Below are positions 13,401-46,724 of a stretch of DNA of 64,000 bases, in pieces. The first letter of the stretch is position 1; every line of letters begins with the position of its first letter. The stretch is from Amoebophrya sp. A120 (Eukaryota > Protista > Dinoflagellata). Both the position numbers and the translations under genes were made by a program. The DNA is taken from positions 229,371-293,370 of the forward strand of contig CAJINV010000007.1 of assembly GCA_905178155.1 (NCBI GenBank). Direction: 5' to 3'. The notes under the pieces were generated by a model. It had not been told where the DNA came from and did not search any database. It saw only the letters and a list, made by a program, of their open reading frames with translations.

Positions 13401-16400
13401 CTTCAATTTCGCGGTCTTAATCCGCACGAACTGCGCATCCGACCCGTCCGAATGGATCGCGTAGATCAGCTATCAAATGCAAATATCCCTGGATGTCTGG
13501 AAGGTCGCAACTTGTGATGCTGCCTTTGGATTCCACACAGAATTTGTATTGCGTGGGCAGCAAAAGAGGTCCGTTTTTTGCTCCACGGAGAGGGCATTTG
13601 TTTCTCATGCAGTACAGGCATGATCAGAAAGCCCTCAACAAATCTGTGATGCTAGGGCATGCATCACAGACATTATGGGTCATGCAAAATATGCATGACA
13701 AGCGCTGCCTTTTTCCAGACCCAGACATATTTGCATTTGATATCAGCGGCGGGGGGAGGTCTTTCAGTGGGGGGTACGGCGGCACCCGCCACGGCTGGGC
13801 CTCAATCGCGAGGTAGTAGTCCACACCGGAATCGTCTTGGGTAGCTGGGAGTTGTCGTTGTGTTATGATTACTAGCCCTTTAACGCGGGCGTCCAGGACG
13901 CCCGCTGGGCTAGTAGCTTGAAAAATAATTCTACACATGGGGCGCGCACCGTTCGCGCTATTTTGGTTGGTGAGAAGGTGAAGGCATGGCACAGACAGAA
14001 ATAGGCACAAAAGGCCCTGAAATTCGCCCCAGAGGAAGGGGGAGCTGGCACCGCAAGAGAAAGCAAAAGCACAGCGGGCGAGGACTACATAGACCCAGGC
14101 GCGGCCTTCCGGCGCGCGTGCGGTTTTGCTTTGTGCATGGGCTGCCCCGAGGGAGATTGGTGCGCCTCGGCCGGCCTTGCTGCGCTTGCCCTAACGGCAT
14201 CGCCGCTTTAGCGCTTTTGCGGTCCGGCGTCCAGGACGCCGGCCCGGCGTCAGCCCCTTTTGCGCGCCCGGCAAGCAAAGCAAAGGGGGCCAGCCGCAAA
14301 GCTTATGTTGGGGCGGCTTTGGCGGCCGGCTGGCCATCACTTTTGCCCGCCCGGAAAGTGATGGCCAAAAATGATGGCCAAGGAGTTCCGGGCCATCACT
14401 TTTGCCCGAGCGAAAAGCGATGCCCACGAAGCTCTTGGCCGTCACTTTTGCCCGACGGGCCGAAATTAAAACGATGGCCAGCGAGCTCTTCATTGACCGT
14501 CACCTTTGCCCGAGGCGAGCGAAAAGCGATGGCCATGGAACTCTTGGCCACCACTTTTGCCCGACCGGGCCAACACTTTTGACCATCGTTTTTTTTTTTA
14601 CCCAAACGAAAAGCGATTGCTGGCCACCGGCATCTTGGCCACCACTCACTTTTGCCCCACCGGAAAAAAATTCACTTTTGCCCGGCCGGATCGGAAAGCG
14701 ATGGCCAGCGAGCTTTTGCCCATCGATCATTTTTGCCCGACCGGAAAACGATGGCCGCCGAAAGCGATGGCCAGAGGGCTCGCGGCCATCACTTTTGCCC
14801 GACCGGAAAGTGATGGCCAGGGGGCTCCTGGCCATGACTTTTGCCCGACCGGAAAGTGATGCATGGCCGTGGAGCTCGCGGCCGTCACTTTTGCCCGACC
14901 GGGAAGCGATGGACAGGGACCCCTTGGCCATCGCTTTGCCCGACCGGAAAGTGATGGCCCCGCAGGAGCTTTTTGACCACCACTTTTGCCCGACCGGAAA
15001 ATGATAGCCCGGGAGGAGCTCTCGGCCATCACTTTCGCCCGGCCGGAAAGTGGTGGCCAAAAGTGATCGCCAGGCAGGGCAGGGAGCTCTTGCCTTGGCC
15101 ATTACATTTGCCCGAGCGAGGTAGTAGTCCACACCAGAATCGTCTTGGGTAGCTGGGAGTTGTGTTATGAATTTGAATGTATAAAAGTGATATCAGATAT
15201 AGTTTTCTTTCGAATAGTAGATTGGGAAGATCATCGCTCCTGTCTGTGTGGAAGTTCAAATTCTTAACCTACAAGCGGTGCCAGGCAAAGAACGACTCTG
15301 TAGTTCTCATATCAGATAAAAATTTTATGAACGTCGAAAAAGAAAACCACTATACTTCTGAAGTCTCCGGGGATGCAAATTTTCCCCTCCCATTCCCGGC
15401 CTGGAACGAGCCACTCGCGGAAGGTCAACGGCTTGTCTATCAAATGCAAATATGTCTGGGCCAGAAAGATTCCGAGGTTTGTCATGCAGTTTTTCCAAGC
15501 TCCCCCACGTCTGGAATGCAGGGCCTAGCATCACAGGTTCTGCAGCCCCTTGGTGATGCCTATTCTGCATGAGAAATGCTCTCAGCATGGCCCGGCAGGG
15601 ACACCTTTTGCACGTTCTGCTTCACAGATCTTTGTATGATCCGAAACACGCATCACAAGTTCGGATCCTTCCAGACCTAGACATTTTTGCAATCCATATT
15701 GTCTTCCGCCTTGCAATTCAAGTGCAGCGAGTGGTTTTTGCTCGAAAGAGGGCTACTTCTACCGTCTGCCCCGCTGTCCCGACGGTGGTCTGTCTCGTTG
15801 CTGTCCCGACTACCTGGAGGATGTTCATCACTCTGGTCGTGACCAGCGGCGGCCTTGATGTCGGCCGTTTGGTCTTCCTCAGCAACACCGTGAAGAATCG
15901 GTTTGTCAAAAAGCATCAAGCTTCCACCTTTGTTGACGGGCACAGCGGATAGCACCCCGATGTCTTCCAAAACTTCCTCCAAGTCGAATTTCAAGAGCTG
16001 CACAAAGAGTTTGCACAGCTTCCTGATGTCGTGAAAGTTCGAATCGTTCATGTTGGTCATGTATGCTCTGCAAAAGTATCGCACCTACGTAGTAATTGCA
16101 GTCATCGACATGAGCATGATAAATCCAAAAATTCTCTACCTGATATAGCATGACAAATTAATTGATTCTATTTTTGAAAAAATTTGTGATGCATTTTACA
16201 CATAAAACGATACTTTTGCATTGCATATCATGCTCATCAGCTCGTAACTCTGCTCCCGCATGATTTCACTGACCCGCTCGCCGTCCATGCTGTTTATCAA
16301 ATGTAAAAATGTCTGGGTCTGGAAGTGTCATGCTGTTTTTGCATGACACAGAAGGTCTGGCATGGAAGCTCTAGCATTACAGGTTTCGAGAAGCTTCGCT

Positions 16401-19400
16401 TCCGCAATGCCGAATCCGCATGACAAATCCCCCACTTTGGTGACAGAAAGTGGGCAGCTTTTGCTACCCAGCATGCATGAGAGATTTTTCCGTGTTCTCA
16501 AATGCGCATCACAAGTTTGTATTCTTCCAGACCCAGACATTTTTGCATTTGATACTGTTCAGCTCATCCTCATTAGGGTAGAGAAAACTGCCGCCCAAAG
16601 TCCCGTCAAACAAGCCGGAGGCGCGCTGCTGATTCAGGATCCACCGCTCAATTTCGGTGATCAGGAGAGAGATCTCCCGTATCCATTGCAAATATGTCTG
16701 GGTATGGAAAGTTGCTAGGTTTGTCATGCATGCAGTAATCTGAATTGCTTCGTGCTGAGTTGCTTTTTTGACTTTTTTTTGTGCAGTTTCTGGCGCGATC
16801 TGAATTGTCACAATATAGCTCATACCTTCGGACTTCGTCTTTGCTCAGTTTTCTTCGTTAATCCTTTCTGTCTTGCCGCTGTTGGTTTCACGTATGACGG
16901 GCGGCGCGTCATATCCCGCAATATTAGCCGCCGCCTTTTCGGGGTCGTCATCACGTGATAATCATGTGATCATCACGTGATGAAGACAACTCAGATTGGC
17001 TTATGAGCAACAAAAGTCATGTGATTATCACGTGACTACTCATGTGATTATCACGTGATCCGAGCAGGCCTGTTTGAGGCCCAAGGCTTTCGCGCGCACT
17101 TGTTCATGGCCAAACACGTAGCGCAAAGAGGAAGAAGCTGCAAGCGCTGCGCTCTAGCGCGGCCAGTTTGCGAGGGCCCAGCCATGGAATGCTCTTCCGA
17201 GGGCTGGACATCGTTGCGTGTGTGGCGGGCGGCGCAGTGTTACGAGAAAACTGCCGCAAGCCGCCCGCTCTATTTCGGAACGCCTCGGGCCCGGCATAAC
17301 GCTTGCGGGCGGCCTTCCCCCCCCCGCCCCCCCCGGGCCCTCTTTCGCATTCTGGCGCGCATGCGAAATTAGGGTGCGCGCGCTGTTTATTTTCGTCTTT
17401 GCTTTAGAGCAACGCTCTGCGGAAAACGTCGACACGCACACAGCCCGTCGCGCAATAGGCCGAGCGCCCGCGCAAGCCTCCCGCGCTACCGGCCTTAGCC
17501 CCTACTTACTATGCGAGGCGCCTTTAAGGGTGCTGGGCACTTCCGTGGACTACTATTTTCTTGCTCCAAATAAAGCTGTCAGGCACTGTGGTCGCAAAAT
17601 ATATTGTCGAGCCACCGCGCTGGGCTGCTTTGTCTTTGTGCGCTGAGTTGCTCCATTCTGTGACAATTCAGCTGCTGCGCTATTCTTTCCGCTTGGGGGC
17701 AAATACGACACAAGGCGCGCCATTTCCGCTTTTGAGGAAATTGGCTCCTGAAGTGCTTCGCTCGCTGTTTTCAGGCTTTCGCCATACGATACGACGCAAG
17801 CTTTGCTCGGAACTTAATACGTATTCGGGTACAATTCAGACTATACGACAACTCAGCGTAGTGCATGCATATTTTGCATGACCCCTGATGCCTGTAGTGC
17901 ATGGCCTAGCATGACAGATTTGTAGAGGGCTTCCTGATGCCTATTCTGCATGAGAAATGCCCTCTCGCCGTGGCAAAAACTGGACCTCTTTTGCTGTTGA
18001 TGCAATACAGATTTTTGTAGTATGCAAGTGCAGAGTGATAAGTTACATCCTTCCAGACCCAGACACATTTGCAATGCATATCTCGCGCTTTAGAATCCAG
18101 CTGCTGCACCTTCAACTGCCGCTGTTGGTTGAAAGTGTGAAGAGCTTCGGCACTCACCGGGCTATAATCGAGGCTCTCGTGGTCTTTGTTGTGCACTGTC
18201 TCGGACGTACTCGTACGTTCTTTGTCCGCATGATTCGCACCCATTTCTTTGCCACCTTCCTTGTCAACATCTTGTTGTTCCTCGGATGCAGCTGTTGTCA
18301 CAACCACCTCCTTCCTATCCGTCATGGCTCTGGGCGCTGCCCACTTCCCGCGCATATAGTTGATATCCCCGCTGGAGATGCCGTTCGTCGGCACATAGCT
18401 CCCGTCCTCCACCTTTTTCGGGCGGGTTTTCAACTCCCGGGTGCGATATCATTTGTAAAAACGTCGCCCCCACAGCAGAGTTGTCATGCAAATGCGCAAT
18501 GACACAAACATTTGTAATGCGCAGCTCCATGGGAGACATTTCCAATCGTGTTTGGGAATTTGTAATGCTGTAGACAGGATGAGAAAGCGGCTCTCTCATG
18601 CGGCTTCCCTTGCTAACCAGCACTACAATGCAGAGGGAAACTTGTCATGCACAACTCCCAAAACTTGGAGATTTGTGTTGCAGATTTACCAGCTTGGCCA
18701 TGGGGTGGGGACGTTTTCACTCAGGATATGCGAAAATACTCCTTCATCACCAGATCCAAATCGCAACTCCGGTCATTCTATCAACTGCAAATATGTCTCG
18801 GTCTGGAAGTGTGCAACGTTTGTCATGCACATTTTGCATGACCCGTGACGCATGCAATGCATCACCTAGCATCACAGATTTTTAATAGGGCTTCCTGATG
18901 CCTATTCCGCATGAGAAACGGCCTCTCCATGCAGCAAAAACTGGACCCCTCATCTTGCTGGTCACGACGCAATACAGATTTTTTTAGAATCCAAAGACAG
19001 CATGACAAATTGCTGTCTTCCAGACCCAGACATATTTGCAATGCATACATTCATGCTGGCGAAGTACTCGCGACCCAATCCCCGGGTCGCCGCCCCCTCG
19101 GGGACCTGAAACGTATCAAATGCAAAAATGTCTGGGCCTGTCATGCACATTTTCCATGATCCATGATGTTTGTGATGTATGCCATAGCATCACAGATTTT
19201 TTGAGCGCTTATCTATGCGCATCCAGCATGACAAATGCCCTCTCCTCGTAGCCAAATTTGAATCCTCTTGCTGGTCATGCAATACAGGTTTTTTTAGCAT
19301 CCAAATGCAGCATCACAAGCTTGGCTCTTCCAGACCGACATCATTTTTGCATTTGATAAAACGCGTCGGTTTGCAACGTCAACGCCCCCGCCTTTTATGG

Positions 19401-22400
19401 CGTTCTCAAATGTTATATTCTCAACTGTTGCATGATTTGCCATGCAGATTCACTATCAGAATCGGCGCGATCAAGCTGCTTCGCATGACAAATTCTCGAA
19501 GACCCACACAGGCTGAGCATCTGTGTACTAAATTTGTCATGCAAGGCACGCAGGGTCACCCCTTTCACTTCTGCCATTCTTGCATGACAAATCCACGGAA
19601 CACTTGAGAATGTAACGTTTGAGAACGCCATACCTTCTTCGCGGCGGTGGGGGTTAAGCTTTGTGTCGCCGCTTTCGAGGTTGCGAAAAAATTTTCGGCG
19701 GAAACTTGCGCTTTGGAATAGGCCGCGGGCGGGCTGACGGAGGAATGTTTGTTGAGTGGGGTGGCATTGAGTTGTGTATTCAGGTTGGGGCCCATGCCCA
19801 TCATCTGCGACACCGCGGGGGACAGCCCTTGATGGTGTTGCTGGTCTAAATTCGATCCTATGCACTGCAAAAGTATCGAACTAGTTCTAGTTCTAGTAGA
19901 AATCGCATGACAAATTTCCTTAGCATGAGAAATGAAATTTGTAAAGCGGACTCGCCTCGAGAAAGAAATTTGTAATGCATGAATGCGATTGCGATTAGTA
20001 CGAGTACGATACTTTTGCAATGCATAGATCCCGCTTTCGACGAAGCCACGGTCGTGCGGCCCGAGGTGTTCGCTGCGTTGTTTAGCTGCTGCTGCTGCTG
20101 GATGTAGTTATTTACTAGATTCACCTGTCCCGAGTAGCTAGTATCGGTCGGGTCGTTCCGGCGCAGGATGTTGCTGCTGCCCTGCAGCATGTCGTTTAAT
20201 TCTCCCGTCGAGGGCAAACTGTACCGGGAAGTAGAAGTCGTGTTGCTGGTCCTGATGCTATCCGGACCGTTCGGCCGGAGCCGGACGTCAAACGTTCCCT
20301 CCGACTGCCGCCCGTCCACGCCGGGCGTCTGCGTCACGACGTAGGGCGACGGGACGTAGCTGGCTTGCGTGGCAGAGCTGTGCGAGGTGCGAGACGTCCC
20401 GTTCGTGGCTCTTGGTCGCGACGGCTGGTGGACCCCCTGCTGGTTCAACACCTGTACCTGCTATCATATGTAAAAACGTCCCCACCCCATAGAAAAAAGG
20501 AAACTTCTGTTGCTGGATTTCTGTACACAAATCGCCACTGTATTGCAGAAGATGCTTGGACAGGCATTTCCTAAGCTTGATTGGGTACTACGCAACAGGC
20601 CTCTAGCGGTTAGGCATGGCAGACACCTTTGCAGTATGAAAAAACGCATCACAGATTGGCTGTGGAATGCGCCAAACGGCTTCCATTTATTGCCCCAGAT
20701 GTTTGTGGGCACAAATCAGCATCACAAATTTCCTTATGGGGAGGGGAGATTTTTCCTCACAATAACTGCCCCGCCTTGTTCGGCGGCATCCAGTCCGGGT
20801 CGGAAAAGTTCACGTTGGCTGTTTATGCATTTCAAATATGTCTGGGAGGTCTGGAAACTTATATTGCTGAGCTGTGAATAGTGAGTGCTCTGTAATGCAC
20901 AGCCAAGCATGAGAAATATTTGCGGAGCTTTAGTGTTGCGTTTTCCGCATGACAAGCTGCGTTTTTGCATGACAAGCAAAAGGGTTCTTTCTTGGACACG
21001 CATGACAGACTTTTCAGTCATGCCAGACAAGCATGACAAAGCTTGCATCCTTCCAGACCCAGACATATTTGCATTTGATATTGCTCCACGAGCGGAAAGC
21101 ACTTCCTCCGCCGAGCTGTTCGCATTTGAAGTCGCGCTCGGGCTCACCGCGGGCTGCTTGTTCTGTGCGATGTTTTGGGGCCGAAGTACAGGATGGTGGT
21201 CCTGGTGGGCGCTGCCACTGTGGGTGCGCGCGTAGAAATTCCGAGACGCCGAGTTGCTGTGAGAGCCTTGACCTGCGGGATAATTTTTGGGATGAAAATG
21301 AAGTACTTAGATAAGTATTCATAATCATAAGAGCGTGGTAAGTAAGTGTTACATATATCTAGTGCCCTCTACTTTCCGCCAATCCGCCCCATGTTGTATG
21401 CAAGTACAAGAAGCTATCGCCCATGCTCTCCTGAGTGTCAGGCACAGTTAGACCCCCCAGAGCCTGCCAAAACACCAGTAAAAAATCATGCTTTGAAATG
21501 TAGTCAATCGATATACTTTCGTCACTCTGGTTGCTCAGTCCGCTTATGGACCGCAAACTCGACTGGGTCCTGCGCAGGTTCTTCTTCATCGGCTCATCTT
21601 CCAGCTCAAAATCATACGCCGAGGCTTCGTCATTGGCGTTGTTACTTCCTCGTGTGATCGCGTGCCCACTGATGTTTATGGAAGTGTCAGAATCGAAATT
21701 GACAAAATCGAAAAATTTGTAATGCATAAAATGTAGGGCACTGGAGGCCTGTATTGGGGCGCAGGCAAATGAGACCGATTGTAAGCCTGTTTAGGGGTAT
21801 GCAATGTGCTGCCAGAGTAGCATGACAGTGGCAGTCTTCTTTGCCCAAACAGCGCGACAGACTGGATTTGGGTGCTCCCGAAATTTGTCATGCGCCGCTT
21901 GCAAACTGAGGCTCCAACTGGTATCGATTTTATGCATCACAAGTTTTGCGATTTTGTCAATTTCGATTCTGACACTTCCATAATGTTCCCGCTCCGGTTA
22001 TTACTCCGGTTCGTCACCGCGGCCCGATTCGCAGTTGTATTCGCGCCGCCGGAGAACCCTCGAGACGCACTTCGCTGCTGCGTGTTGTCTCGACTGTTGT
22101 CGCGGGAGAACGAGTATGAACTGCAAAAGTATCGTACTCGTATAAATGCATCACAAATTTCCTCAGCATGAGTAGAAACAAAATTTGTAATGCGGATTTA
22201 CCTTGGCAAAAGGATTTGTAATGCATGATTGCAATACGAGTACGATGCTTTTGCACAGGATAACGAGGGAGGTAGCGGCACTGCGGAAGAAGCCGCCCGG
22301 GAAACGGACGCGTTGGAATTCGCGGTGGGTAATAACGTGTTGAGCACTATCCTGTCTAAAAACGTTCCCGCCCCATAGTTGTAATGCAAATCTACTGCAT

Positions 22401-25400
22401 GCTGAAGATATTTCTCACGCGGAGCCCCATGGCAAGCAATTTCTACCGTCGTGCTTCGAAATTTGGCATGCTCCAAGCAGCATGACGCGCTAGGTCTGTG
22501 ATGCTGCTGAACTGGCTGGGCAGCATTACACTACGAGGCCAAACTTGTCACGCGCAACAGCCAAAGCTTGTTGATTTGTCTAGCAGATTTCCCATCTTGA
22601 CTATGTGGTGGGGACGTTTTTGCTCCGAGTAAACGCCGAGTCTTGTTTATCCAAGAAAAAAACGTTGTAGGTGTAACTTTTTTGGAGGAACAGCATTACA
22701 AATCTGTCTGGCATGACAGCAAAAACGTGTCATGCGCAGATAGTACGTGAAAACGCCCTGTAATGGACCCTAGAATGCATGCCAAGCATGACAGACGCAA
22801 TCATCTTGCATGTTGCGCATCACAAATTTACACTAACAACGTTTTTTTCTTGGATATTGTTCGTCCAACTCCAGTTTTCCGACAATCCCCGCACTTGTGT
22901 CATCAAGCATCCGGTATGGGGTTCTCAAGCGTTACATTCTCAACTGTTGCATGATTTGTCATGCAAAACGACCGTGAGCCACCAGACGATGAAGGTGCTT
23001 CGCATGACAAATTCTCGGAGGGCTAAATAGCACTAGAATCCGCACTAAATCTGTAATGCAAGACGCGCAGGGTTCTCCCTCTGACTTGTGCTATTCTTGC
23101 ATTACAAATTCATGTAACAGTTGAGAATGTAACATTTGAGAACGCCATATCCGGTTGTGCTGCGTTGGAAGTAGAGCAGCTGCTCCACCAATTTCGGTAG
23201 AAGAAGAGGCGTCTCCTGCAGAGATGTTCGCCTGCATGCGGTTGATTATCAAATGCAAACATGTCTGGGTCTGGAAACTTGTGATGCAAGTCTGTGAATG
23301 GTAGGCGCACTCCACTACGCAGCCAAGCATGACAAGTTTTTGAGCTGCCGTGTGTTTCGTTTTTCGCATGACAAGCTGCGTTTTTGCATGAGAGGCAAGA
23401 GGCCCTATCCTGCTCATGCATCACAGATTTAAGAGTCATGCCAGACAAGCATGACAAACTTGCTTTCTTCCAGACCCAGACATATTTGCGATGCATATTG
23501 ATGCTCTGCTGCTGAAAGGAGATACTGGGCTGGTTCTGGGGTTGCGATCCCGCGTTGATTTTCTGGTTGAACGCTGTGGTTATCAACTGCAAATATATCT
23601 GAGTCCGGAATAAAGTTGGAACTTGTAATGCTGACGTTGCATTCCTGTGAATAAATCTGTATTGCATGACCAACAAAGAACAGGCGCAGCCCCTTTTGAT
23701 GTCATACAAGAACGCAGCTTCTCATGCGAGTTGCGTACGAGAAAGCGCTCTGCAAACTTGTCATGCTTCGCTGCATTCGAAAGGGTTTTTATCATCCACA
23801 GTTCAGCATCACAACTTTCCAGATCACCCAGACGCAGACCACATACTTGCAATGCATAGTGGTTTGCAAAGACCGAATACTGGTTTCCGACATGGGGTTT
23901 TTCAAGTTGTAATCTATCCTGAGAAAAAAATGTTACAGTTACACACCCTGATGGAAGACAAGCAATACAGACAACCTCTGTCATGCAGAAAACGCGTGCC
24001 AGCCTCATTCCATTCGTGTTTTCCGTTATAGTCTGCGCATCACAGGTTTTCTTTGCCATGTCGAGCAACTTCGCGATGCAGAAACTCCAACAAATGTGTA
24101 ACTGTAACACCTTTTTTCTTGTGATATAATCCCGCGAATCCACACTGGTCCGGGGGTAGCTGTGCGACTGCGGAGACAAAGGCGGAATCATGTTGCCGTG
24201 CTCTCGATTCATCAGGGTGCCACTGTCATCGTCCCCTTCAGACGGAGCTCCACCCAGGGCCGGAATTCGCTTGTTGCCAAAAGTCATCATGTTTGTTATC
24301 CTGTGTAAAAACATCCCCACCCCAGAGTTGTCATGCAGATCTGCAAGCACAAGAGCATTTGTAACGCGCATCCCCATGATAGGCATTTCCGACCGTGTTT
24401 TGGAACTTGTAATGCTGTAAACAGGATAAGCAAGTGGATTTGTAATGCGACTTCCCTTGCTAAACTGCACTACACTACAGCCTGCAATTTGTCATGCGTG
24501 ACTCCCAAAACTCCTAGGTTTGTGTTGCAAAATCCCCATCCTGACTCTGGTGTGGGGACGTTTTTACTCAGGATATTTGTTGTACTTGCATTCGTTTCCG
24601 ATGAATCCGCTTCGGAACCGCCGTGCCGCGTCGCTATGGAAGCGTCAGGTTTGAAATCGTCAAAGTTGAAATAGCTTGTCATGCATAAAACGGATACCAG
24701 TTAGACCTACAGTTTTTAGTCAGCGCATGACAAATTTTCCCGGTCCTCGAAGCGAGTCTCTCATGCGGTTTAGGGCAAAAGAGCTGCCTGCTGTCATGCT
24801 AGTCAGCAGGCCAACTTTTGAAGACGACCCTTGCCAGGACTATAATCTGCCTCCCGTGCGTCCTCTGCAATAGAGTCACTTTTTGAATCGCATTTTATGC
24901 ATGACAAATCATTTCAACTTTGTCGATTTCAAACCTGACGCTTCCATAGTCGCTCCTGTGCCGGTAGTTCGTGTCTGTTCCGACGGTCCACAAGAAACAG
25001 GGCCCGCGTTGCGTTCTTTATCTTTACTCGACGGCGCACCATGTTGTTGGCCGCTTCTATAACTAACCGGTGCCGAGATGCGATGCGCGAAGCTGCCCTG
25101 CTCACCGATCTGGGGGTTGACGGAGGTTTCAGCTATCCACAGTAAATTTCCTGTACACGTACAAATGCAGTCTCTGCATGACAAAACTTGGCTTCAATCC
25201 TAGTGCAGCATGACAAGTTGCACACTCCAAGTTACAGAAATTTGTCATGCATTTTGTACATGTACAGGAAATTTACATTGCATATCAGCAGTGAACATGA
25301 CATTTGGAGAGGAAAATGTTCGCTTCGCAGACGAATCCTTCATATCCGTCTCGCCAGCAGGAAGATCTTTCCCCTCGTCTTCCACCAGTTTCTCTCCTAC

Positions 25401-28400
25401 CGTGGACGCCTTCACAACCGACGTATTTGGCTTCGATAAGTTCTTGTCCTTGAAAATCTCCCGTTCCAAGGCGCGCGCCGTGGTTATCCTGTCTGTGTCG
25501 CACCTTTGACGAGAAGGACTATCGTGGTCAAGAACATCTTCCTCCTTTTGTTCCACAGTTGCTCCTATGAACTGCAAAAGTATCGCACTCGTATAAATGC
25601 ATTACAAATTTTCTCAGCATGATGAGAAATGAAATCTGTAATGCGGATTTACCATTAAGAAAAAGATTTGTAATGCATGACTGCAATACGAGTACGATAC
25701 TTTTGCACGGGATAGCTCCACTAGGACCTTCGTCTCGCAAAATTTCCGCGCGCTCGTCTTCAATAATATGATCCTGCTTGTTGCACTTCTTCTTGCTCGT
25801 TCCTGTGTCCGGTTTGGTATCCGCGGACGTCGTTCGCCACGCGTTGGACGAGGTCGGATCTTCATTGTTCAACAAATTCGAGGAGGAATTCGAACTCTTG
25901 TTCGTCGAAGATTTCACCGTTTTACTATTCGAAGACACATTATCCCGACTTGTGGATTTCGAAACAGTCTCGTCGTTCGCACCGCCCGTAGACGAGGATT
26001 CTGACCTGCCACGACCTATCAAATGTAAAAATGTCTGGGTCTGGAAGAATGCAACTTGTGATGCTGCATTTGGATTCCAGAAAAATCTGTATTGCATGAG
26101 TACCAAAAGGAATGCAATTTGTGCTATGCGGAGAGGGCATTTGTCATGCGGAATAGGCATCAAGAAGCTCTCAAAAAATCTGTGATGCTAGGGCATGCAT
26201 CACAGACATCAGGGCTCATGCAAAACGTGCATGACAAGTGTCAGAATCTTCCAGACCCAGGCACTTTTACATTTGATACGACCCGTGGACAACTTATCAG
26301 AACTTTGTTCGTCCTTCTCTTCCGTCGGGCTGGTGTTCGGAGTCGTGTCAGAGGAGGCGTTATCAAGTGCAAAAGTGTCTGGGTCTGGAAGAATGCAACT
26401 TGTGATGCTGCATTTGGATGTCTAAAAAAATTGTGTTGCATGAGCAGCAAAAGATTTCTATAATTTCGCTGCGCGGAGCGGGCATTTGTCATGCGGAATA
26501 GGCATTAGGAAGCCCTCTAAAAATCTGTGATGCTAGATCATGCATTAGAGGCATCATCGATCATACAAAATATGCATGACAAGTCTCAGAATCTTCCAGA
26601 CCCAGACATTTTTGCATTTGATAGGCGTAGGTGCCTTTCACGGAAATCGAGTCCGGCGTCTCGTTGCTGGTCGGCTCTTCCGAGGTGTTGATGTCTTGCG
26701 GTGGAGCAGGACTACTTCTATGCGGCGAAACCACAAATCCTCGATTCTTGTTCGATGCACCAGCACCGGCACTGCTGCCTTTCGACATAATTGTCGTCGC
26801 ACCATTTTGTTGAATATGCTTCTTGGCCCCCGCAACCAGAGCGTGCGTGTTGCTGTTCCGGTTTTTCTCCAGGATTCGTCTCCGCATGGTCTCCCGGTCT
26901 TGCTGCCGACTACTAAGCAGCAACTCATCGTCTACGGAGGACAACAAATCCGGCACGACAGAATGCGTCTCCCCCGGTCCGGATCCGGTATTGGTCAGAT
27001 CCTGATCCCGTTCGCGCTCGACCCTTTCCTCCTCTTTCTGGCGCAGCGTGAACGTATCATCCGACCGATTTCCGTCCGATCGGTTTTCGCTACTGGTGGT
27101 GTTCGTGGCGGACGGGCGCAGCGCGTCTTCGCTGTTCACCTGGGAATTGCTCGAAGTCTCATCGTATCAAATGCAAATATGTCTGGGTCTGGAAGGATGT
27201 AGGATTTGTCATGCCAGTTTCCATGACCCATGAGGTCTGTAATGCAGCACCCGGCATGACAGATTCTGTGGGATCTCTAACTCTATCAATATCATGCCTA
27301 TCCTGCATGAGAAATTCCCTCTCAACTTGTTAAAAAAGGACGGCTGTTGGTAACCATGCAACACAGATTTTTTGCATCATTCAGGTTTGGCATGACAAGT
27401 TGCCATCTTCCAGACCCAGATGACATATTTGCAATGCATACATCGGATTTGTAGTCGGAAATGGAATTCTATGAATTGCAAAAGTATCGCACTCGTATAA
27501 ATGCATTACAAATTTCCTCAGCATGAGAAAAAAAAATTGTAATGCTGATTTACCTTAAGAAAGAGATTTGTAATGCATGATTGCAATACGAGTATCAGAT
27601 ACTTTTGCACAGGATAAATTCGCCGACATGCGGAAGTTGTTCGGGGACCGCGACCCGTCGTTGCTGTCCGTGTAATTGTATCAACTGCAAATATGTCTGG
27701 GCATGGAAGATTCTGAGACCTGTTTGCACGTTTTGCATGAGCCATGACGTCTGTGGCGCATGCTCTAGCATCACAGGTCTTATTTTGAGGGATTCTTGAT
27801 GCCTAGTATTCCGCATGACAAACGCCCTCTACTCTGCGTAACCAACATTAGATTCCTTTTGCTGCTCATGCAACACAGATTTGTTTGAAATCTAAACGCA
27901 GCATCACAAGTTGTAACCTGCTTCCAGACCCACACGACATATTTGCAATGCATAAATTGAGGGGTAATTTCTCCTCGGATCCCTCCGCAGACACCATCGG
28001 GTGAAAGGACACCGTGGATCTCTTATCCAAGAAAAAAACGCTGTTAGTGTAAGTTTGTGATGCGCAACATGCAAGATGATTGCGTCTGTCATGCTTGGCA
28101 TGCATTGTAGGGCCCATTAAAGGGCGTTTTCACGTACTATCTGCGCATGACAGGTTTTTGCTGTCATGCCAGACAGATTTGTAATGCTGCTCCTCCAAAA
28201 AAGTTACACCTACAACGTTTTTTTCTTGGATATCTCTGTCGCTCCGGGTAGGAATCGAGTTCCGGCGAGCTCGGGACAGGCCGGCCGCTTTTGTCCTGGC
28301 CGCGGGCGCTGTCCGCTGACCGGTGCTTCTTCTTCAGCACGCCCTTGATCTTCTTCGGATGCTGCTGGGTGTCATTATTTGGAGCTCGTCCCGCTGACGA

Positions 28401-31400
28401 CGTTCCCGACGTCCCGGCGATGTGAGAGAGAGACCTCAAATCCGCTAAGTTCTTGCTGCTATCGGAGCTCGTCCCCCCCTGCTTTGACGACCCGTTGTTC
28501 GATCCAGAAGAACTGCTGCCAGAAGACTCCTTTATCCAAGAAAAAAACACCATCACAATCACATTTGGGAGGTTTTGCATCAGAAATTTGTTTCGCGGGA
28601 CAGACTTCTCTTGTATTGCAAGAACATATAGGGAAAGCGCCTACAAGTGTTGACTGTGATGCATTTTTGCGCATGACAAAAATTTTTGTATTGCACAAAT
28701 GTGCAAAAGTGATTGTGATGATGTTTTTTCTTGGATATCCTTACTGGTCTTATCAGTACTAGAATCGGTCCCGCCCGGCGATAAGTCCTATCAAATGCAA
28801 ATATGTCTGGGTCAGGAAACTTGTGATGGTGAAATGTGCATCATGGAAACACTTCCGAATGCAGTCCAGCATGAGAACTTTCCGCGGCGCTTTCTCATAG
28901 GCAGTTCGCATGAGAAACTGCGTTTTTGCATGACAAAAATGGCTGCGGCTTTTGTCGGTTCTGCAATACAGATTTCCCACGAATGTAAAGCTAGCATTAC
29001 AAGTTCCAACTTTCCAGACCCAGACATTTTTGCACTTGATAAGTCCGGCCGAGGACCGATGATCACCTCGACGAAGGGCGTGCGCTGGCGGGGATTTTGA
29101 TGTTGGTCCACGACCTCTTCGTCGACTTTCGGAAGGAGGGTTTCCTTCTCCCCGAGGAACCGCATATGTCCACCAGTGTGTTGGTCCAGCGGCAAGTGAT
29201 CCGACAGCAAGGTTTGGTTCATCACGACCGGTTGCTGTTGAAGATGCTCATCTTCTGTAGCTGCTGTTTTCACTGCCCTCGCTTGATGTTGATGTTCCCC
29301 GCTTCTCTGACGCTCCAGCTCCACGCGGAAATCCACCGGCGTGAAGCAATCCAGGTTCGGGTTCGTCATTACTGTAGGCGTAATTACATTCATAGGTGTA
29401 GCTGCTGCTGCTCTACTACGCTCGGAACGACTTCTGCTTGCCGCAGCTACCGGCGTAGTAGCTAGACCCGGTTGATTTTCAACATGGTTCCTCGGGGAAG
29501 GTCTTGCTTGCGCTGGGATTTGTTGTTGTTGATGTCCAACTTGTTGCGCAACAGCAGTCTGCTGCAGCTGCTGCTGACTATCCTGCAACATCAGCCCCGG
29601 GCTCCCGGTATTTGTGATAATTCCCGAAGTGGTATTCATCACAGCTGTGTGCTCTTGCTGAGCAGTCTGCTCTTGCAGGAACTGCGGATCGTAAGGTACC
29701 CCGCCAATGTAATCCTGCAGTTGCAGTTGCACGGGCCTGTCATTCAGCATCTCTTTTTCGTCCACCCCGTTGCTGCACTGCACCCGAATATCTGCCAACT
29801 GCGCAAACTCGCTTTCCGACGGCTGGTTTAACTCGTTTTCGTGGAGCTTTTGCGCGGCACGCTCCGCATTGCCGAGCGCGTAGCTCGCGGCCGCCATCAC
29901 GTTTTGCAAATCCGAAATCACCGAGTTCAGCGCCAGCTGCGCATTCCGCACGTCCTGCGTCTGCGACTGCGCGGACGTTGGTGAAGCCGCGGAGTTCATA
30001 TTCTGCTGGGCCGCAAGGGTGGTCGCCGCGGCAATGCTGTTGGCTTGCTGCTGCAGCGCGAGTAACGGAGAGGGCAGGTTTAACGGGTAGGCAGATGTTG
30101 CACCAAGTGCAGTTGCAGGAGCTTCTTGTCCTTGTGTGGTAGTGACTACAAAGTCTCCTGGCGACCCAGACCCGCTGTGTGCGGAGGATGAGCCAGCCGG
30201 TCCTGTGGCGGACCCACTGGGATTATTGACAGTGTTGTTCAGAAATTGAACGTTTCCAGCGCCGGTCGTCTGCTGCTGCTGGTGCTGTCCCTGAGACGGG
30301 ATCATTACATCCGCCATTTGCCCAAACCGCTGCACCTGCCTGGTCGTAGTTTCCAGCGACATCATCCTCTGAATGGTGGTCGTCTGTTCGTGCAAATTCA
30401 TCTGGTGCGACACCTCGTCCGTCGTTTGCCGCACGACCTGTATCCTCTGCAAAAGTATCGTACTCGTACTAATTGCATTTATGCATTACAAATCTAGTTC
30501 CTAAGGCAAATCTGCATTACAAATTCAATTTGTAATGCTGAGCCAATTTGTATTGCAATTTATACTAATACGTTACTTTTGCAGTGCATAACCTGGTGCT
30601 GGTGCTGGTGTGAGGAGGAGAACTGCTGCGAAGACGTTTGCTGCTGCTGCTGTTGAAACAACTGCTGTGATTTTTGCAACTGCTGTTGTCCCCCAGGTTG
30701 TTGTTGAGCTCCTACAGCAATACTTCCACTATGGGTCTGCAGCTCCGGGTACTGATATGGATTGCAAAAATGTCTGGGTCTGGAAGGTTGCAACCTGTCA
30801 TGCTAATTCTCGATCATGCAAAAATCTGTGTTGCATGATCACCAATAAAGCTGTTCACTTTTGAGCAGGCCGAGAGGCAGTTTCTCATGCGGAAAAGGCA
30901 TGGAAAAGATCTCACAGAATCTGTGATGCTAGGGCATGCATCACAGACCTCACACGTCATGCAAAACGTGCATGACAAATGTTGCATTCTTCCAGACCCA
31001 GACATTTTTACATTTGATAACTGAGATGTTGCCACATAATGCTCCTCCAGCGTCGCGCCGGAACTCGAAAACGAATTATCAAAGAAAAAAAGTTCGTCAC
31101 GATCACTCATGCGCATTCTTGCAATACAAAACTGTTTGTCATGCGTAAAAATGCATCACAGCCAAACTTCATTGGGGATTTCCCTAGTGTTTCTGCAATA
31201 CAAGGAAAGTTTATGATGCTGAGAAAATTTGTAATGCAAAACCTGCAAGTTAGTGACTGTGACAAACTTTTTTCTCTCCATACGAATCCCCGACTTTGTA
31301 TTCGCGGTTGAAGATTTTCGTTTTGTTCTGCGAGACTGGCATCTGGGAAATTGTTGTTCCGAAATAAGGGGAAGATGTTGAAGCTCCTGCTTGTTGGTTG

Positions 31401-34400
31401 TTGTACTCATAGGTCGCCATGCTTATATTCTTGTTCCCTGCTGCAACTCCTGGGGACGACGGAGAGAAGCTGCTGGAAGCCCCACCCGCGTTTTGCTGCA
31501 GTAGTGTCATCATCTCGTAGTTTTCCCCGCCGCCAGCATGTGACGAAGACGCAGGACCAGGAGATCTTCCGTCGCTTTGCATCATCTGCTTGTTCCTACT
31601 TTGATGTTCCCCTTGATCATGTACTAGTGCAACACCTTTATTGCTGGTGTCGAAGAAGTGCCTGCGCCTCCCGACATCATGGTCCGTCAAGTTCTCCGAC
31701 TGCGAGCGAACTAACCTGCTTATCAAATGCAAATATGTTGTCCGGGTCTGGAAATTTGTGATGCTAAAATGTGCATGATGAAAACGCTTCCTTATGCGGC
31801 AGAGCATGACAAGTTTGCAGAACGCTTTCTCGTACGCCCTCCGCATGACAAATTGCGTTTTCGTAAGACAAGAAAGGCTACGACTTGTTTTGTTCGTCAT
31901 GCAATACAGATTTCACAGGACGCTGAATGTAAGGCCAGCAATACAAGTTCCAACTTTTCAGGAGACCCAGACTTATTTACATTTGATACTGCTATTGATG
32001 ATCCGATGCGTTTCCTTGCTATTTTTCGTCGCGGTTCTCTCCGAAATTTCGTTCAGCTGTGGAGCGAATTGCTGGTGGTGTATGCGAAGAAAAAAGTGTT
32101 ACAGTTACACATATAGTCTATGCAAGACCGGCAACACAGATAACCTTTCTCATGCAGGAAACGCTTGGGAGCCTCGCTTCCTTCCTGTTTTCCCTTATGA
32201 TCTTCGCATTACAAGTTTTCCCTGCCATCATCATCATCATCATTGAGACGGACCCCCTGTGGTCGTCCTCACGGTGTCGTCTTGGCCCTAGGCTGTTTCG
32301 GACAGATGTTGGTTGTGTCCGGCAAGAGGACGGCTCTGCGTGGGCAAATGTTGGTAATGTCCAGCAAGAACTCTTCCGTGGCCCCATTTATTTTCTGCCA
32401 CACAGAGAAAATTTGTGATGCAGAAACTCCAACAAATGTGTAACTGTATGTAACACTTTTTTCTCGTGATATGGTGGTCCGAGGGACTAGTACAAGAACC
32501 AGGAGACACGTTATTTGAATTTGACACGGGCGTCGCGTGTACGCTGAGCTTGTTGTGCTGGTACTGCTGCTGTTCTTGTAAGCCGCCAGTAGTTGCACCG
32601 ATTGAGATTTTGCCACTGCTGTTATCCTGAGTAAAAACGTACCCACACCATAGTCAAGTTGGGGAATCGGCTAGACAAATCCACAAGTTTTGGCTGTTTT
32701 GCATGACAAATTTGGATTCGTAGTGTAGTGCTGTTTGAGCTAGCTCAGCAGCATCACAGATCTAGGATGCCATGCTGATTGGAGCATGACAAATTGCACA
32801 ACACGATTGGAAAATGCTTCTCATGGAGCTCCGCATGAGAAAGATTTTCAGCATGCAGATTTGCATTACAACTATGGGGTGGGGACGTTTTCAAATAGGA
32901 TAGCTGTTCGGAGTGGTTCTACTATTATTTTGACTCATCTGCTGGTATGGATGTGTCAGAGTTGAAATCGACAAAGTTGAAATAATTTGTCATGCATAAA
33001 ATGGATGCTAGCTGGAGCCCAGTTTTCAAGTGGCGCATGACAAATTTCGGCGGTCCCTAAATGCAGTTTGTCATGCTGTTTAGGCAAAGAAGAGCGATTT
33101 TCTCGTGCTACTTTAGCAGCTCGAGCTGTCACCCCAAACAGGCTTACAGTCGGCCTCACTTGCCTGCTCTGCAACACACGCGCCTCGGGTCATGCATTTT
33201 ATGCATTACAAATTATTTCAACTTTGACGATTTCAAACCTGACGCTTCCATAGCTGGCGCTGATCAGTTACAACTCGCCGGTTGTTGTTCGGGGTGAAAG
33301 CAAGTCCTCCATTCTGATCGAAACCTTGAAGCTGCGCCAGTTGCGGGTGAAGATGTTGACCATTCGTCTGGGTCGCGAAGTTCTGGTGTTCGTCAACGTG
33401 AGATAAGTTTGGTGTCCGAAACTGCTGCTGAATATTAAATCCGTCCGCATTTTTGTAATAGTTCTCTTGGCTACTACTACTTCCCGAAGCAGCTGGAGCT
33501 GCTCCCTGGATGCTGCGGCCCACCAAGCTCGTACCCTGCATCCTGCCCATAATGTCGTGCGTCGCAGCCACCGTGGAAGCCGTTCCGCTGCCGTCCGAGC
33601 GACAGCCGTCGCCCCCCGGGGTGCTCGGCTTCAGTAGAGAAGACGTGTTCGCCGCCGTGGGCGGTTGTACAAGCTGTTGGCTATGCATTGCAAAAGTATC
33701 GTACAAGTAGAAATAGCATTACAAATTTTTCCAGAAACAAAAATGGAATTTCTAATGCTGAATTCGCTAGGAAGCCAGATCTGTCATGCATGACTGCATT
33801 TCATACGAGTACCATAGTTTTGCGGTGGATATTGGCGCGGATGGGACGACATTGAGGAAATTCGATTCCTTGTTTCATCATCGCGGTAAGTGCCACCCAC
33901 GATTTCGCTGGTCGTGCTATCCGGCTTCATAGAAGTCATGGAAGTAGAAGATTTTCTTATCCACTGCAAATATCGATCTGGATCTGGAAGGATTATACAG
34001 AGGTTTTTTGTAATGCAGCTTTCGCGTGTTACCCCAGGAGGTTTGGCATGCAGCACGCCCTAGCATGATAACAGGCTCTGAAATATTAAAGTAGGTCTCT
34101 TAATATATAATGCGTCATCCGCATGAGGCAATAAAGCCCTTCTTTCGGTGGCCAGAACTGGTGTCCAGCTCCTTTTGGCTTCCATGCATGACAGATTTCT
34201 GTGCGAAGTGAAAAGCGCATCACAGGCTCGCATGATCGTGATCCTTACAGAGGACCCAGATAACATCATTTGCATTTGATATTTCTACCATGTTCAACAT
34301 CGCTTCTATGTTCCGAGTATAGCCCTCGGAAAGAACGGTGCTCCTTGTTGGAAGTAGCGTGGATAATCATTCCGCTCGGTGGACTATCAAATGTAAAAAT

Positions 34401-35155
34401 GTCTGGGTCTGGAAGATTGCCAGGTTTGTGATGCAAATTTTGCATGACCAATGACGCCTGTAATGCATGCGGTAGCATCCCGGATTTTTCGAAGGCTTTC
34501 TGATGCTTATTCCGCACGAGAAATGCCCTCCCCATGTAGCACAAACTGGACTCCTTTTGCTAGTCATGCAATACAGATTTTTTTGGAAACCAAAGACAGC
34601 ATCACAAGTTACCACCTTCCAGACCCAGACATTTTTCAATTTGATATGGACTTATGTTGTCGCACGCTGTCGTCGAGGAGACTCGCTCTGTCGAACCGCC
34701 GCCTTGTATGAGAGTGCACAACCCCCCCTCCCCCTCATTTGCCATGCAAAATCCCAAATCCAGTCTGTTCCTCATGGCAGTGTTTGCATGACAAATTCGG
34801 ATGTTGGCCCAAATAGCCCTACACTCCAGCGTAATAAACTTGTCATGCAACAGCGGCATTCTTGCTGATGCTTTTATTGCCGTTCATGCTATACAAATGA
34901 GGGGGACGAGGGGGAGTTGTGCATTGTCATACCCCCTGTCGTCGTGGAGATGGCGCTGATCAGCGTCCCTGTATGATCTTCGCTGAAAACCTTTCGATAC
35001 GCTGCCATGGGAAGATTTTCTCCCTCCGGATGGGGGTAATTATATGGTCCTTGCTGTGTTGATGTCCTCATCTCGGAGGTGGGCGTAGAAGCTGCTGCTG
35101 GCGCACCTCCCTGCTGGGAGGACGACCTCTGTTCTTGCGAAGTGGAAGATGACAT
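10401..35155 (-). CDS. Giant spliced gene, ~3,300 aa: long S/T/Q/N-rich low-complexity region plus C-terminal RING-H2 finger (putative E3 ubiquitin ligase); ~50 exons
   Basis: Last exon encodes CVICMCALE...RLPCKHYFHFDCALEWLNNKGTCPTCR (C3H2C3). 47 TAT...ATA elements each give an in-frame join when removed with 5 flanking nt (e.g. WEDFET|RIEG, TTMPR|DYLF, DSKARE|ISLL, HQV|VRQ). One likely GT-AG intron at 21516-21273. Junction 15354-13864 is unresolved, so a two-gene split there cannot be excluded. Summed exons ~9,975 nt. Confidence 0.8.
11282..11431. mobile_element. Introner family B (TAT-N5-GCAAAAGTATCGTACTCGTA...TACGATACTTTTGC-N5-ATA), ~150 bp
   Basis: TSD GTCGG/GTCCG. Other members: 16062-16227, 19859-20026, 22115-22262, 25566-25714, 27470-27616, 30441-30590, 33682-33831, 50515-50663, 53252-53404. 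Confidence 0.92.
11764..12000. mobile_element. Introner family E (TATGGCGTTCTCAAATGTTACATTCTCAAC...GAGAACGCCATA), ~236 bp
   Basis: ~30-bp TIR. Other members 19396-19632 (TSD CCTTT/CCTTC) and 22915-23149 (TSD TCCGG) lie in the opposite orientation. Confidence 0.9.
12189..12432. mobile_element. Introner family A (TAT-N5-GCAAAAATGTCTGGGTCTGGAAG...CTTCCAGACCCAGACATTTTTGC-N5-ATA), ~245-325 bp, most abundant (32 copies)
   Basis: TSD GGTCT. Others: 12596-13114, 13471-13742, 15438-15698, 16295-16554, 16680-18080, 18779-19047, 19114-19358, 20824-21080, 23247-23497, 23581-23858, 26017-26278, 26361-26623, 27165-27440, 27679-27954, 28789-29041, 30756-31019, 31721-31988, 33958-34281, 34385-34646, 51029-51595, 51920-52188, 53475-53728, 54708-54970, 55117-55365, 56352-56613, 56693-56963, 57391-57652, 57988-58250, 59909-60184, 61925-62182, 62303-62564. 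This family is the source of the recurrent spurious 'PDPDIF/MSGSG/CKNVWVWK' ORF motifs. Confidence 0.95.
12640..12888 (-). mobile_element. ~250-bp insertion nested in an A-family introner; probable truncated non-LTR retroelement/SINE
   Basis: Interrupts the usual GCCAGACTTGTCATGC with duplication of ACTTG. Minus-strand 3' end is a (CCAA)n tail. Confidence 0.6.
13872..15115 (-). mobile_element. Helitron-like non-autonomous insertion containing palindromic tandem repeats
   Basis: Minus strand starts TC and ends with hairpin GCGGGCGTCC-T-GGACGCCCGC, 9 nt, then CTAG|T. Flanked by a ~55-60 bp direct duplication (13808-13868/15116-15170). Confidence 0.5.
14330..15115. repeat. Degenerate tandem array of ~45-bp hairpin units (GGCCATCACTTTT-GCCCGACCGG-AAAGTGATGGCC)
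   Basis: TTTGCCCG recurs about 15 times; the arms are inverted repeats. Confidence 0.85.
16733..17863. mobile_element. hAT-like non-autonomous element (~1.13 kb) nested in an A-family introner
   Basis: 8-bp TSD CATGCATG/CATGCATA. Imperfect TIRs CAGTAATCTGAATTG / CACTACGCTGAGTTG. Repeated CTGA(A/G)TTG motifs and an ATCA(C/T)GTGAT cluster at ~16950-17060. The two halves of the host introner (16680-16732, 17864-18080) join into a normal A element. Confidence 0.65.
20462..20764. mobile_element. Introner family K (…AAAAATCCCCCCTCCCCATA-type TIR), ~300-335 bp
   Basis: TSD CCTGC/ACTGC; left end is C-like. Other members: 58440-58762, 60238-60573, 61402-61711. Confidence 0.85.
21273..21516 (-). other. 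Probable canonical GT-AG intron of the RING gene
   Basis: Donor GAAA|GTATAT and acceptor TTATCCCGCAG|GT give in-frame NQSDE-S-QGSHS and skip in-frame stops. No TIR, TSD or shared motif. Confidence 0.6.
21677..21982. mobile_element. Introner family F/G (TATGGAAG(T/C)GTCAG...CTGAC(A/G)CTTCCATA), ~310 bp
   Basis: TSD ATGTT; long (~50 bp) TIR. Other members: 24635-24948 (TSD GTCGC), 32946-33252 (TSD GCTGG). Confidence 0.9.
25134..25284. mobile_element. Singleton introner (TATCCACAGTAAATTTCCTGTACA...TGTACAGGAAATTTACATTGCATA)
   Basis: TSD TCAGC; frame restored (FTA|ETSV). Other singletons: 50254-50466 (TSD AAGAC), 50695-50958 (AAGTG), 52636-52894 (GTGTG/GTGTT), 62635-63854 (TGCCC). Confidence 0.88.
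32228..32394 (-). mobile_element. ~167-bp insertion nested in a D-family introner; probable truncated non-LTR retroelement
   Basis: Duplication of CTGCCA relative to the uninterrupted copy at 5225-5435. (TGA)n tail at the minus-strand 3' end. Confidence 0.6.
34707..34931. mobile_element. Introner family I (TAT-N-GTGCACAAC(T/C)CCCCCTC...CATTTG), ~215-320 bp
   Basis: Other members: 51658-51870 (TSD GGTCT), 53814-54133 (ATGGT), 57121-57336 (TGCGA), 60617-60877. The TSD of this copy is diverged but the frame is restored. Confidence 0.88.
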
Positions 35156-35980
35156 ACCCGGTTTTTTTTTTGAGGTCCTGCTCTCCTTCCGAGAAAGAGA
35201 ATTAGGTAGTTTTATGACGAAATATTCGTCGTGTTAACACGCCGATTTAGTTTCACGTGGACGACGTTGCTTTTATCCTCGTTATGTAGGACGATAAGAA
35301 GTGATAAAACCAGGAAAAAGTCGGTAGTCGATGACTATTAATTTGGCCGAAAAAAAAAACCGCAGCGAGCCACACACAGAGTAATAGTGAGTGGTTTGCT
35401 CAGGATAAAAGATTTTCCTCGATGGCACAAAAATAGTTAAAGATTGGGCAAAAGGTATTGAAGCACGTGGTAAAAGAGAAGTTTTCTTGCCAGAAAATTG
35501 CGAGGTTAGTTATGTTCTGCGATCGGTTTCAAACGAACCCGAACGAGAATCAACAAACCCTACAAAGTAGTCCTGCAAAAAAGAAACTTCTCCTCCAAAT
35601 TATGCAAGTATCAAATACCAGTCCACAAAAGCTCAAACGAATACTCTACGGCATCTTCCCCGTTTTTCTTTTCTCTACTTTACGACCAAGTCCGCCGGAA
35701 TATTAGCGAACCTGGCTGACAAAAGAGGAAAACTCAGGGATGATCTTTAGAGCACAATGTGACTTTTTCTTCAAGTCATGGGTAGTAGAAATACTTTTAA
35801 TATTGCAAACAAGAACAGTAAAGAATCGACGAGACTAGACAATCTATAGATGAATTTGGTAGGAGTACTGTTTTCGCAAAATAGTATTAGGGTCGTCGTT
35901 CTTGGGTAGTAGATCAAAGCACAAACACGCTGTCGTTTACTTTGTCGTGTTGTATGAAGGTCGCGCCCGGAGGGCGATAT

Positions 35981-45895: not shown

Positions 45896-45918
45896 AAATA
45901 CGTAAGTGGAGCCTTCAT

Positions 45919-46724
45919 CTCTACCGGCCCCGGCAAGAGGATCAGGCGTCGCCGGTAGAAACGAGAGACAGACCGGGAAAGTAAATCAAGGTAGCCACTG
46001 ACTCTGCCACCAACGGCAAGCCGTGTTTTTCGTTTCCGGGGCGATCTCTCGTTTCTACCGGCCCCGGCAAGAGGATCAGGCGTCGCCGGTAGAAACGAGA
46101 GACAGACCGGGAAAGTAAATCAAGGTAGCCGCTGACTCTGCCACCAACGGCAAGCCGTGTTTTTCGTTTCCGGGGCGATCTCTCGTTTCTACCGGCCCCG
46201 GCAAGAGGATCAGGCGTCGCCGGTAGAAACGAGAGACAGACCGGGAAAGTAAATCAAGGTAGCCACTGACTCTGCCACCAACGGCAAGCCGTGTTTTTCG
46301 TTTCCGGGGCGATCTCTCGTTTCTACCGGCCCCGGCAAGAGGATCAAGCGTCGCCGGTAGAAACGAGAGACAGACCGGGAAAGTAAATCAAGGTAGCCAC
46401 TGACTCTGCCACCAACGGCAAGCCGTGTTTTTCGTTTCCGGGGCGATCTCTCGTTTCTACCGGCCCCGGCAAGAGGATCAAGCGTCGCCGGTAGAAACGA
46501 GAGACAGACCGGGAAAGTAAATCAAGGTAGCCACTGACTCTGCCACCAACGGCAAGCCGTGTTTTTCGTTTCCGGGGCGATCTCTCGTTTCTACCGGCCC
46601 CGGCAAGAGGATCAAGCGTCGCCGGTAGAAACGAGAGACAGACCGGGAAAGTAAATCAAGGTAGCCACTGACTCTGCCACCAACGGCAAGCCGTGTTTTT
46701 CGTTTCCGGGGCGATCTCTCGTTT
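45919..46724. repeat. Satellite sub-array 1: 134-bp unit, 6 near-identical copies
   Basis: CTACCGGCCCC at 45921, 46055, 46189, 46323, 46457, 46591, 46725. Confidence 0.97.

Follow-up and report, generated by a model that had tools for sequence, protein, structure and literature searches.

Inverted-repeat introners of Amoebophrya sp. A120 leave the transcript in either orientation, without GT-AG and with polar conservation of their ends

A 64,000-nucleotide stretch of the genome of Amoebophrya sp. A120 (hereafter the window) carries a dense set of elements of 150–340 nt that start with TAT, end with ATA and have a 5-bp duplication on either side. These elements stay in the DNA and are lost from transcripts, together with 5 nt each, in both orientations and without GT-AG. 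Transcript junctions at five elements support, on the assumption of one common register, an intron that begins 1 nt before the terminal repeat and ends 4 nt after it (N-UAU...AUA-NNNN). Under that register the fixed bases are U+2 and A-7, and the pattern of conservation suggests that the ends are read with polarity and by base identity, not as a symmetric stem alone. Judged by their sequence, the elements are the introners of this strain already published by Farhat et al. (2021, PMC7789003). New here are the fixed register and the invariant U+2/A-7 rule, for a mechanism left open in that published system. We think it probable that a modified U2-type spliceosome, with its branch A 7 nt from the intron end, removes them.

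Results

The elements are numerous and sharply delimited. Pairs of ends with a terminal inverted repeat (TIR) matching at 12/20 positions or more and a perfect 5-bp target-site duplication (TSD) number 58 in the window and 0 in each of 20 dinucleotide resamples. Our curated list holds 79 elements, 66 found automatically and 13 by hand; two further probable elements near 4509–4720 and 50694–50959 were left out of it. The TSD is 5 bp long throughout and perfect in 64/79. The elements are about 250 nt long with a GC content of 44% (exons, 55%), and a motif of TAT, 7 variable nt and at least AAA marks 60/79 of the 5′ ends and 63/79 of the 3′ ends. They form nine families of 2–28 copies, plus singletons, with both orientations present in each family. 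TIRs, a fixed TSD, short length and many copies in both orientations are the hallmarks of miniature inverted-repeat transposable elements (MITEs), and on these characters the elements would be MITE-like transposon copies of the Amoebophrya A120 type (TAT...ATA ends, 5-bp duplication). An Rfam scan of the window gave no hits.

A scan with one element end found 86 stretches, at least 80 of them from one assembly, and 84 loci were used for comparison. These loci match 76 of the 79 window elements at 69–96%. In one of them, L015, an element interrupts a gene for CCT-beta; the exon of this gene matches Amoebophrya sp. A120 CAD7948183.1 at 100% identity, AT5.2 at 93% and A25 at 92%. The shared families link the window indirectly to A120 or a strain of the same species.

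Copies of one family can lie in opposite orientations in a single gene. The element at 22648–22856 (209 nt, 21-bp perfect TIR, TSD TTGTT) and its family member at 28024–28232 (TSD TCTCT) are identical at 202/209 positions when one is reverse-complemented, against 131/214 in a same-strand comparison, and both sit in the same 2694-codon minus-strand open reading frame (ORF; 35233 to 15314). Similarly, the copy at 11764–12000, whose gene (frame 14190 to 10403) encodes a RING-H2 finger, is inverted relative to 22915 (score 284 as reverse complements, 164 on the same strand), and the copy at 55593–55871, which on sequence appears to lie in another minus-strand gene, is inverted relative to 24297 (414 against 110). 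All three inverted pairs, in one gene and across different genes, had been pointed out in a preliminary description of this DNA and are confirmed here. Thirteen further elements lie between the members of the first pair (22915, 23247, 23581, 23915, 24297, 24635, 25134, 25566, 26017, 26361, 27165, 27470 and 27679; span 22915–27954).

The host gene (15314–35233, minus strand) becomes readable only without its elements. Its 2694-codon frame emerges once 42 elements, with 5 nt each, and one canonical GT-AG intron are removed; 30 of the 42 shift the frame if retained. The canonical intron (21273–21516, minus strand) is 244 nt long, starts with GTAT and has no terminal repeat. The product is a low-complexity protein, and a Pfam scan of three host-gene exons gave no hit. 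A single large gene across 10400–35233 was considered and rejected, as the frames are separate.

Removal takes place at the RNA level. We compared four public sequencing runs over 19300–35300, of which X1 and X4 are presumed to be RNA and X6 behaves as genomic DNA; X10, searched as raw reads, gave 3 reads only on this region. A 15,345-nt X1 contig is without 33 elements (and 5 nt for each) and also without the 244-nt GT-AG intron, and is therefore a spliced transcript. The removed length equals the predicted length, with a difference of 0, in 7/7 intervals of X1 and 2/2 of X4; this arithmetic holds per interval, not per element. By it, all 13 elements at 22915–27954 are missing from the transcript contig, and elements with TSDs matching at only 3/5 positions are removed as well. 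In X6, by contrast, 8/8 listed pieces continue at both sides from exon sequence into elements; two of them cover entire elements, and one retains the GT-AG intron. No empty site, as ciliate-type elimination would leave in somatic DNA, was found in this one DNA-like run (8 pieces; 15 of 1848 joints listed). Loss from transcripts and retention in DNA-like contigs together place removal at the RNA level, and the DNA-level excision entertained in the preliminary description is not borne out. Exact removal of the element in L015 restores the CCT-beta motif, with spacing as in 100/100 pattern-matched homologues (of 120).

The elements do not carry the borders of an ordinary intron. GT at +1/+2 together with AG at -2/-1, which defines a U2-type intron, is not characteristic of them, and a GT...AG reading is feasible at some shift in only 4/79 curated elements, in 17/463 of a larger set and, inside 22648–28232, in 1/15 (26017). 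This agrees with the earlier observation that in many elements no boundary shift within the TSD yields GT...AG; the sense duplications quoted for it (CACAA, CAATC, TCTAC and TCGGG) are those of 4774, 5225, 5742 and 12596. Orientation relative to the transcript is unbiased (101 versus 84 in the 185 copies assigned to families, out of 276 oriented; p=0.24), and both orientations are missing from transcript contigs. The claim of orientation-independent removal without GT-AG thus stands.

Where the two TSD copies of an element differ, the cut register can be read. We define k as the number of bases of the upstream TSD copy that lie inside the intron. The element at 22348–22631 (AGCAC/AACGC; sense 5′ end TAC) gives k=0–1, and that at 20824–21080 (CTGTT/TTGCT) gives k=1–3, an X4 piece beginning at 21082. 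At 20462–20764 (CCTGC/ACTGC) k is at least 1, with X1 and X4 pieces stopping at 20457; at 34707–34931 (CCTTG/CCCCC) k is at most 2, with an X1 piece that begins at 34932 and has no other letters; and at 19396–19632 (CCTTT/CCTTC) k is at most 4, with an X4 piece beginning at 19633. These ranges overlap only at 1, so a common register, if there is a single one, must be k=1. Among 44 cases in which the choice changes an amino acid, k=0 creates a stop in 2 and none excludes k=1. The register sample comes from degenerate TSDs at 19396–34931; seven more lie at 52636–61327 and three at 11282–18080. A diagnostic junction in locus L034 (element ending at 7445) was sought through an annotated protein; the only matches were an ORF called without splicing and a distant fragment from A25. 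TSD mismatches were also tested for GC/AT drift; the counts were small, their direction was opposite to that expected, and the test was not used.

The two ends are not conserved in the same way. We collected 617 unique elements without use of their first four bases; 293 could be oriented by ORF and 324 could not. In the main set (ORF-oriented, TSD at least 4/5, n=276; 39/665 calls had a TSD of 3/5), changes at the first repeat base number 0 at the transcript 5′ end and 9 at the 3′ end; for the third repeat base the corresponding numbers are 4 and 0 (Fisher p=0.0014). In an extended set (n=465) the counts are 0 versus 11 for the first base and 10 versus 2 for the third (p=7e-5). When elements with a TSD of 3/5 are included, the first-base contrast weakens (2 versus 9 ORF-oriented, 5 versus 12 extended), and the third-base contrast reads 8 versus 0 and 17 versus 3. 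Strand-biased mutation was considered as the source of this polarity and rejected: it cannot produce both signs, and inner positions 11–13 are symmetric.

With k=1, the fixed bases U+2 and A-7 are unaltered in 276/276 ORF-oriented copies. Position +3 is a purine, both of its deviations being G, and +1 and the last four intron bases are free. G+1 is not enriched (141/463 against a background of 0.286), and nor is a terminal AG (34 against 30.7 expected in the set of 463). The elements thus have, given k=1, the U+2, purine +3 and invariant A near the 3′ end of a U2-type intron, an A that may serve as the branch. A U+4-to-C change is tolerated despite the loss of a pair, and an A-7-to-G change, which keeps a wobble, is absent from the ORF-oriented set. 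Because U-to-C breaks the pair and A-to-G keeps it, a model of pairing only predicts the reverse pattern at the third position. Constraint on pairing without polar base identity, as in tRNA/XBP1-type or euglenid-type splicing, is not what we find.

The ends are nevertheless predicted to form a stem, as in those same two types of splicing. Folding predicts an inner stem in 35/35 elements at 19396–34931, and the predicted folds of 22648–22856 and 28024–28232 have z values of -6.7 and -9.0. In about a third of these 35 elements, for example 22348, 23247 and 25566, the three outermost pairs are predicted to be open, and stem positions 4–7 are Watson–Crick pairs in only 177–329 of 463 copies. The symmetric end structure had been proposed as the removal signal. 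That the end structure carries the signal is supported by the predicted inner stem. A symmetric reading of it is not supported: the cut lies 1 nt outside the repeat on the 5′ side but 4 nt outside on the 3′ side, and the mirror positions of the fixed U+2 and A-7 vary.

Some elements are much enlarged. The element at 16680–18080 is 1,401 nt long, about 1.1 kb of which is a GC-rich insert; its removal is required for the 2694-codon frame, so that by this frame inference the ends alone appear sufficient. Inserts also enlarge the elements at 12596–13114 and 51029–51595, and the 240-nt insert at 12651–12890 is found again in locus L034 at 97.5% identity. On sequence, the elements with this 240-nt insert seem to be a recent composite subfamily.

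The window has several further features. The X1 contig has 7,402 letters beyond 20027; the spliced host gene has only 1,552 letters from 20027 to its stop, and 5,019 are available down to 10400. The contig may continue through the next co-oriented gene or genes, as read-through, polycistronic RNA or an assembly join. All ORF-oriented window elements (66/66) lie in minus-strand genes, in agreement with the unidirectional gene clusters reported for Amoebophrya. An unbroken 1,537-codon frame at 41372–45985 (minus strand) has no element and no Pfam hit and adjoins tandem arrays, which occupy 1–959, 2444–4412 and 45781–49127 with units of 132, 166 and 133–134 bp. The stretch 13900–15200 is intergenic, GC-rich and internally repetitive, and 48 nt near 15116–15163 duplicate 13808–13855 at 98%. 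A GC-rich repeat at 62952–63827 is 81% identical to L013:8917-9788 over 893 nt. Protein searches with two window exons found no match among longer proteins, which is weak evidence.

Discussion

How could a spliceosome remove introns of this kind? The canonical spliceosome docks the 3′ AG onto G+1 and the branch A, so that a joint loss of both specificities is coherent. We propose that the A120 spliceosome no longer reads G+1 or the 3′ AG, and that the inner stem of the inverted repeat would bring the ends together, replacing recognition by U1 and U2AF. U+2 and R+3 would be the remnant of a GURAG 5′ site, and A-7 the branch point, which would set the 3′ site at a fixed 6 nt downstream. Palindromic ends present the same polar signals from either orientation. 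Orientation independence, once taken to argue for non-spliceosomal RNA splicing or DNA-level excision, is consequently no argument against the spliceosome; of that earlier proposal the RNA level stands. Since the offset is 1+4, removal takes out one 5-bp duplication exactly, which makes insertion silent at any site.

Published observations are compatible with such a machine. A120 retains 83/89 spliceosome proteins and U2, U4, U5 and U6, U1 not being found (PMC7789003). In Table S4 of the same paper, 9/9 of the commonest non-canonical sites start with NT in A120, and 9/9 in A25 with TT. Branch points anchored at -6 to -8 (distances converted) occur in Yarrowia, Candida guilliermondii, Trichomonas and Giardia (PMC2483917), and in Fritillaria the U2 spliceosome removes non-GT-AG introns (PMC13326754).

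A number of points weigh against a spliceosomal reading. Aligners that favour nearby GT-AG shifts may bias Table S4, which is not independent for that reason. The deviation counts are small. The register comes from five elements of one gene, none of which fixes k=1 alone, and its source is assembled contigs from two runs presumed to be RNA; the RNA check covers only elements within 19396–34931. The roles given to the branch and to small nuclear RNAs (snRNAs) are putative. The context of A-7 is a poor match to the consensus for U2 branch points (T at position -9 in 35/79), and the canonical intron at 21273–21516 lacks an A at -7. U+2 and A-7 could also be needed by a stem-binding nuclease, and perfect 21-bp stems would need opening for U2/U6 pairing.

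A route independent of the spliceosome is possible, although we judge it unlikely: either a structure-guided endonuclease and a ligase, or a second machinery of the kind suggested for the nonconventional introns of euglenids. With an endonuclease and ligase, the terminal stem would be bound, U+2 and A-7 contacted, a 3-nt staggered cut made and the exons joined. Strong stems predicted in either orientation, full indifference to G+1 and AG, the failure to find U1 in A120 (PMC7789003) and the release of euglenid TIR introns as circles without a lariat (PMC11282704) would all suit such a route. The incomplete pairing of positions 4–7 would not, and positions 1 and 3 of the repeat are constrained by identity and polarity. 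Moreover, the bases that have been retained are the spliceosome's own (U+2, R+3 and, close to the 3′ end, an A), and UAU at +2 to +4 is common to the elements and the canonical intron. About equally doubtful is the reading that a second, spliceosome-independent machinery removes most A120 introns, recognizing a hairpin with U+2 and A-7 as its only base signals and cutting at the 1-nt and 4-nt offsets.

Two explanations that place the loss outside RNA processing are far less probable. Ciliate internal eliminated sequences are lost at the DNA level with one repeat copy, as an element and one repeat copy are lost here, and programmed excision of this kind in the transcribing stage might be imagined. 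An offset like the one found here could also arise from a symmetric staggered cut in DNA if it is read from the template strand. The DNA evidence comes from one DNA-like run, with 15 of 1848 joints listed, and contigs drop rare variants. Against this, loss accompanies ordinary splicing in the X1 contig, the X6 pieces keep their elements with no empty site among those joints, the ends are conserved with polarity relative to transcription and, to our knowledge, the parasite has no separate germline nucleus; we regard DNA excision as very improbable. Hairpins at direct repeats are also a geometry known for template-switching artefacts of reverse transcriptase. That the loss is such an artefact is scarcely credible, given that removal restores both the host frame, which most of the elements would shift if kept, and the CCT-beta motif of L015, that removal extends to elements whose TSDs match at 3/5, and that the ends are under polar selection. 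Removal by a modified U2-type spliceosome accordingly remains the reading that we favour.

The published A120 introners have repeats of TAT, 7 nt and AAA with direct repeats, and more than 60% of introns in the strain are non-canonical (PMC7789003). Our elements share this motif, the direct repeats, tens of copies per gene and removal from RNA, and agree in length (240 nt in the paper) and GC content (46.5%/56.3% in the paper for our 44%/55%). They differ in that the paper gives repeats of 3–5 nt and splice positions that are 'variable' relative to the hairpin, with an 'unknown' border, whereas we find a 5-bp TSD, one register and invariant U+2 and A-7. Farhat et al. report no cognate transposase in A120. 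Gozashti et al. (2025, PMC12130899) place A120 families among the TIR DNA elements, and the ends annotated for them are mixed; two motif strings had no match in 12 of the 14 supplements of that paper. In its supplement file 8, large A120 families are annotated with GT in 26–28% of copies (19 of 58 A120 rows), close to the 26–30% of G at +1 under the k=1 register, and the annotated AG may stem from another shift within the same duplication. Strain Kv has canonical introns and U1 (PMC12005148). The introns of strain AT5 are canonical as well, and in A25 the repeats begin with TTA. In the literature available to us we found no register, U+2/A-7 rule or lariats for Amoebophrya; the logos in Figures 3 and S19–S25 of Farhat et al. 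may bear on the register.

Other systems resemble this one in part. The non-canonical introns of Fritillaria borealis are likewise MITE-derived, with TIR and TSD, non-GT-AG and reportedly dependent on the U2 spliceosome (PMC11282704, PMC13326754), but have AG-AC/AG-AT ends and a conserved U1, whereas Amoebophrya has NT-NN ends with no terminal preference and no U1 found. Euglenid nonconventional introns also have a TIR stem joining the ends, TSD-like repeats and non-canonical junctions; they differ in their pyrimidine/purine junctions, their circles and the pairing of +4 to +6 with -8 to -6, where here +2 to +4 faces -5 to -7 (PMC11282704). The introners of Micromonas and Aureococcus are non-autonomous TIR transposons turned introns with one TSD copy lost, as here, but bring a single canonical site with them and recruit the second from the TSD (PMC11282704). 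Orientation and target consequently matter there, and neither matters here.

A120 has some 40,000 non-GT-AG introns. A fixed register accounts for the 'variable' splice sites of the published description, which become shifts within the 5-bp duplication, and the register rule would correct A120 gene models at degenerate junctions. If a second machinery were responsible, any copy would be harmless at any site and in either orientation. If the spliceosome is responsible, it has lost its need for G+1 as well as for the 3′ AG. Such a loss would bear on which splice-site contacts are truly required for catalysis, and on the way in which one family of transposons can fill a genome with introns at no cost.

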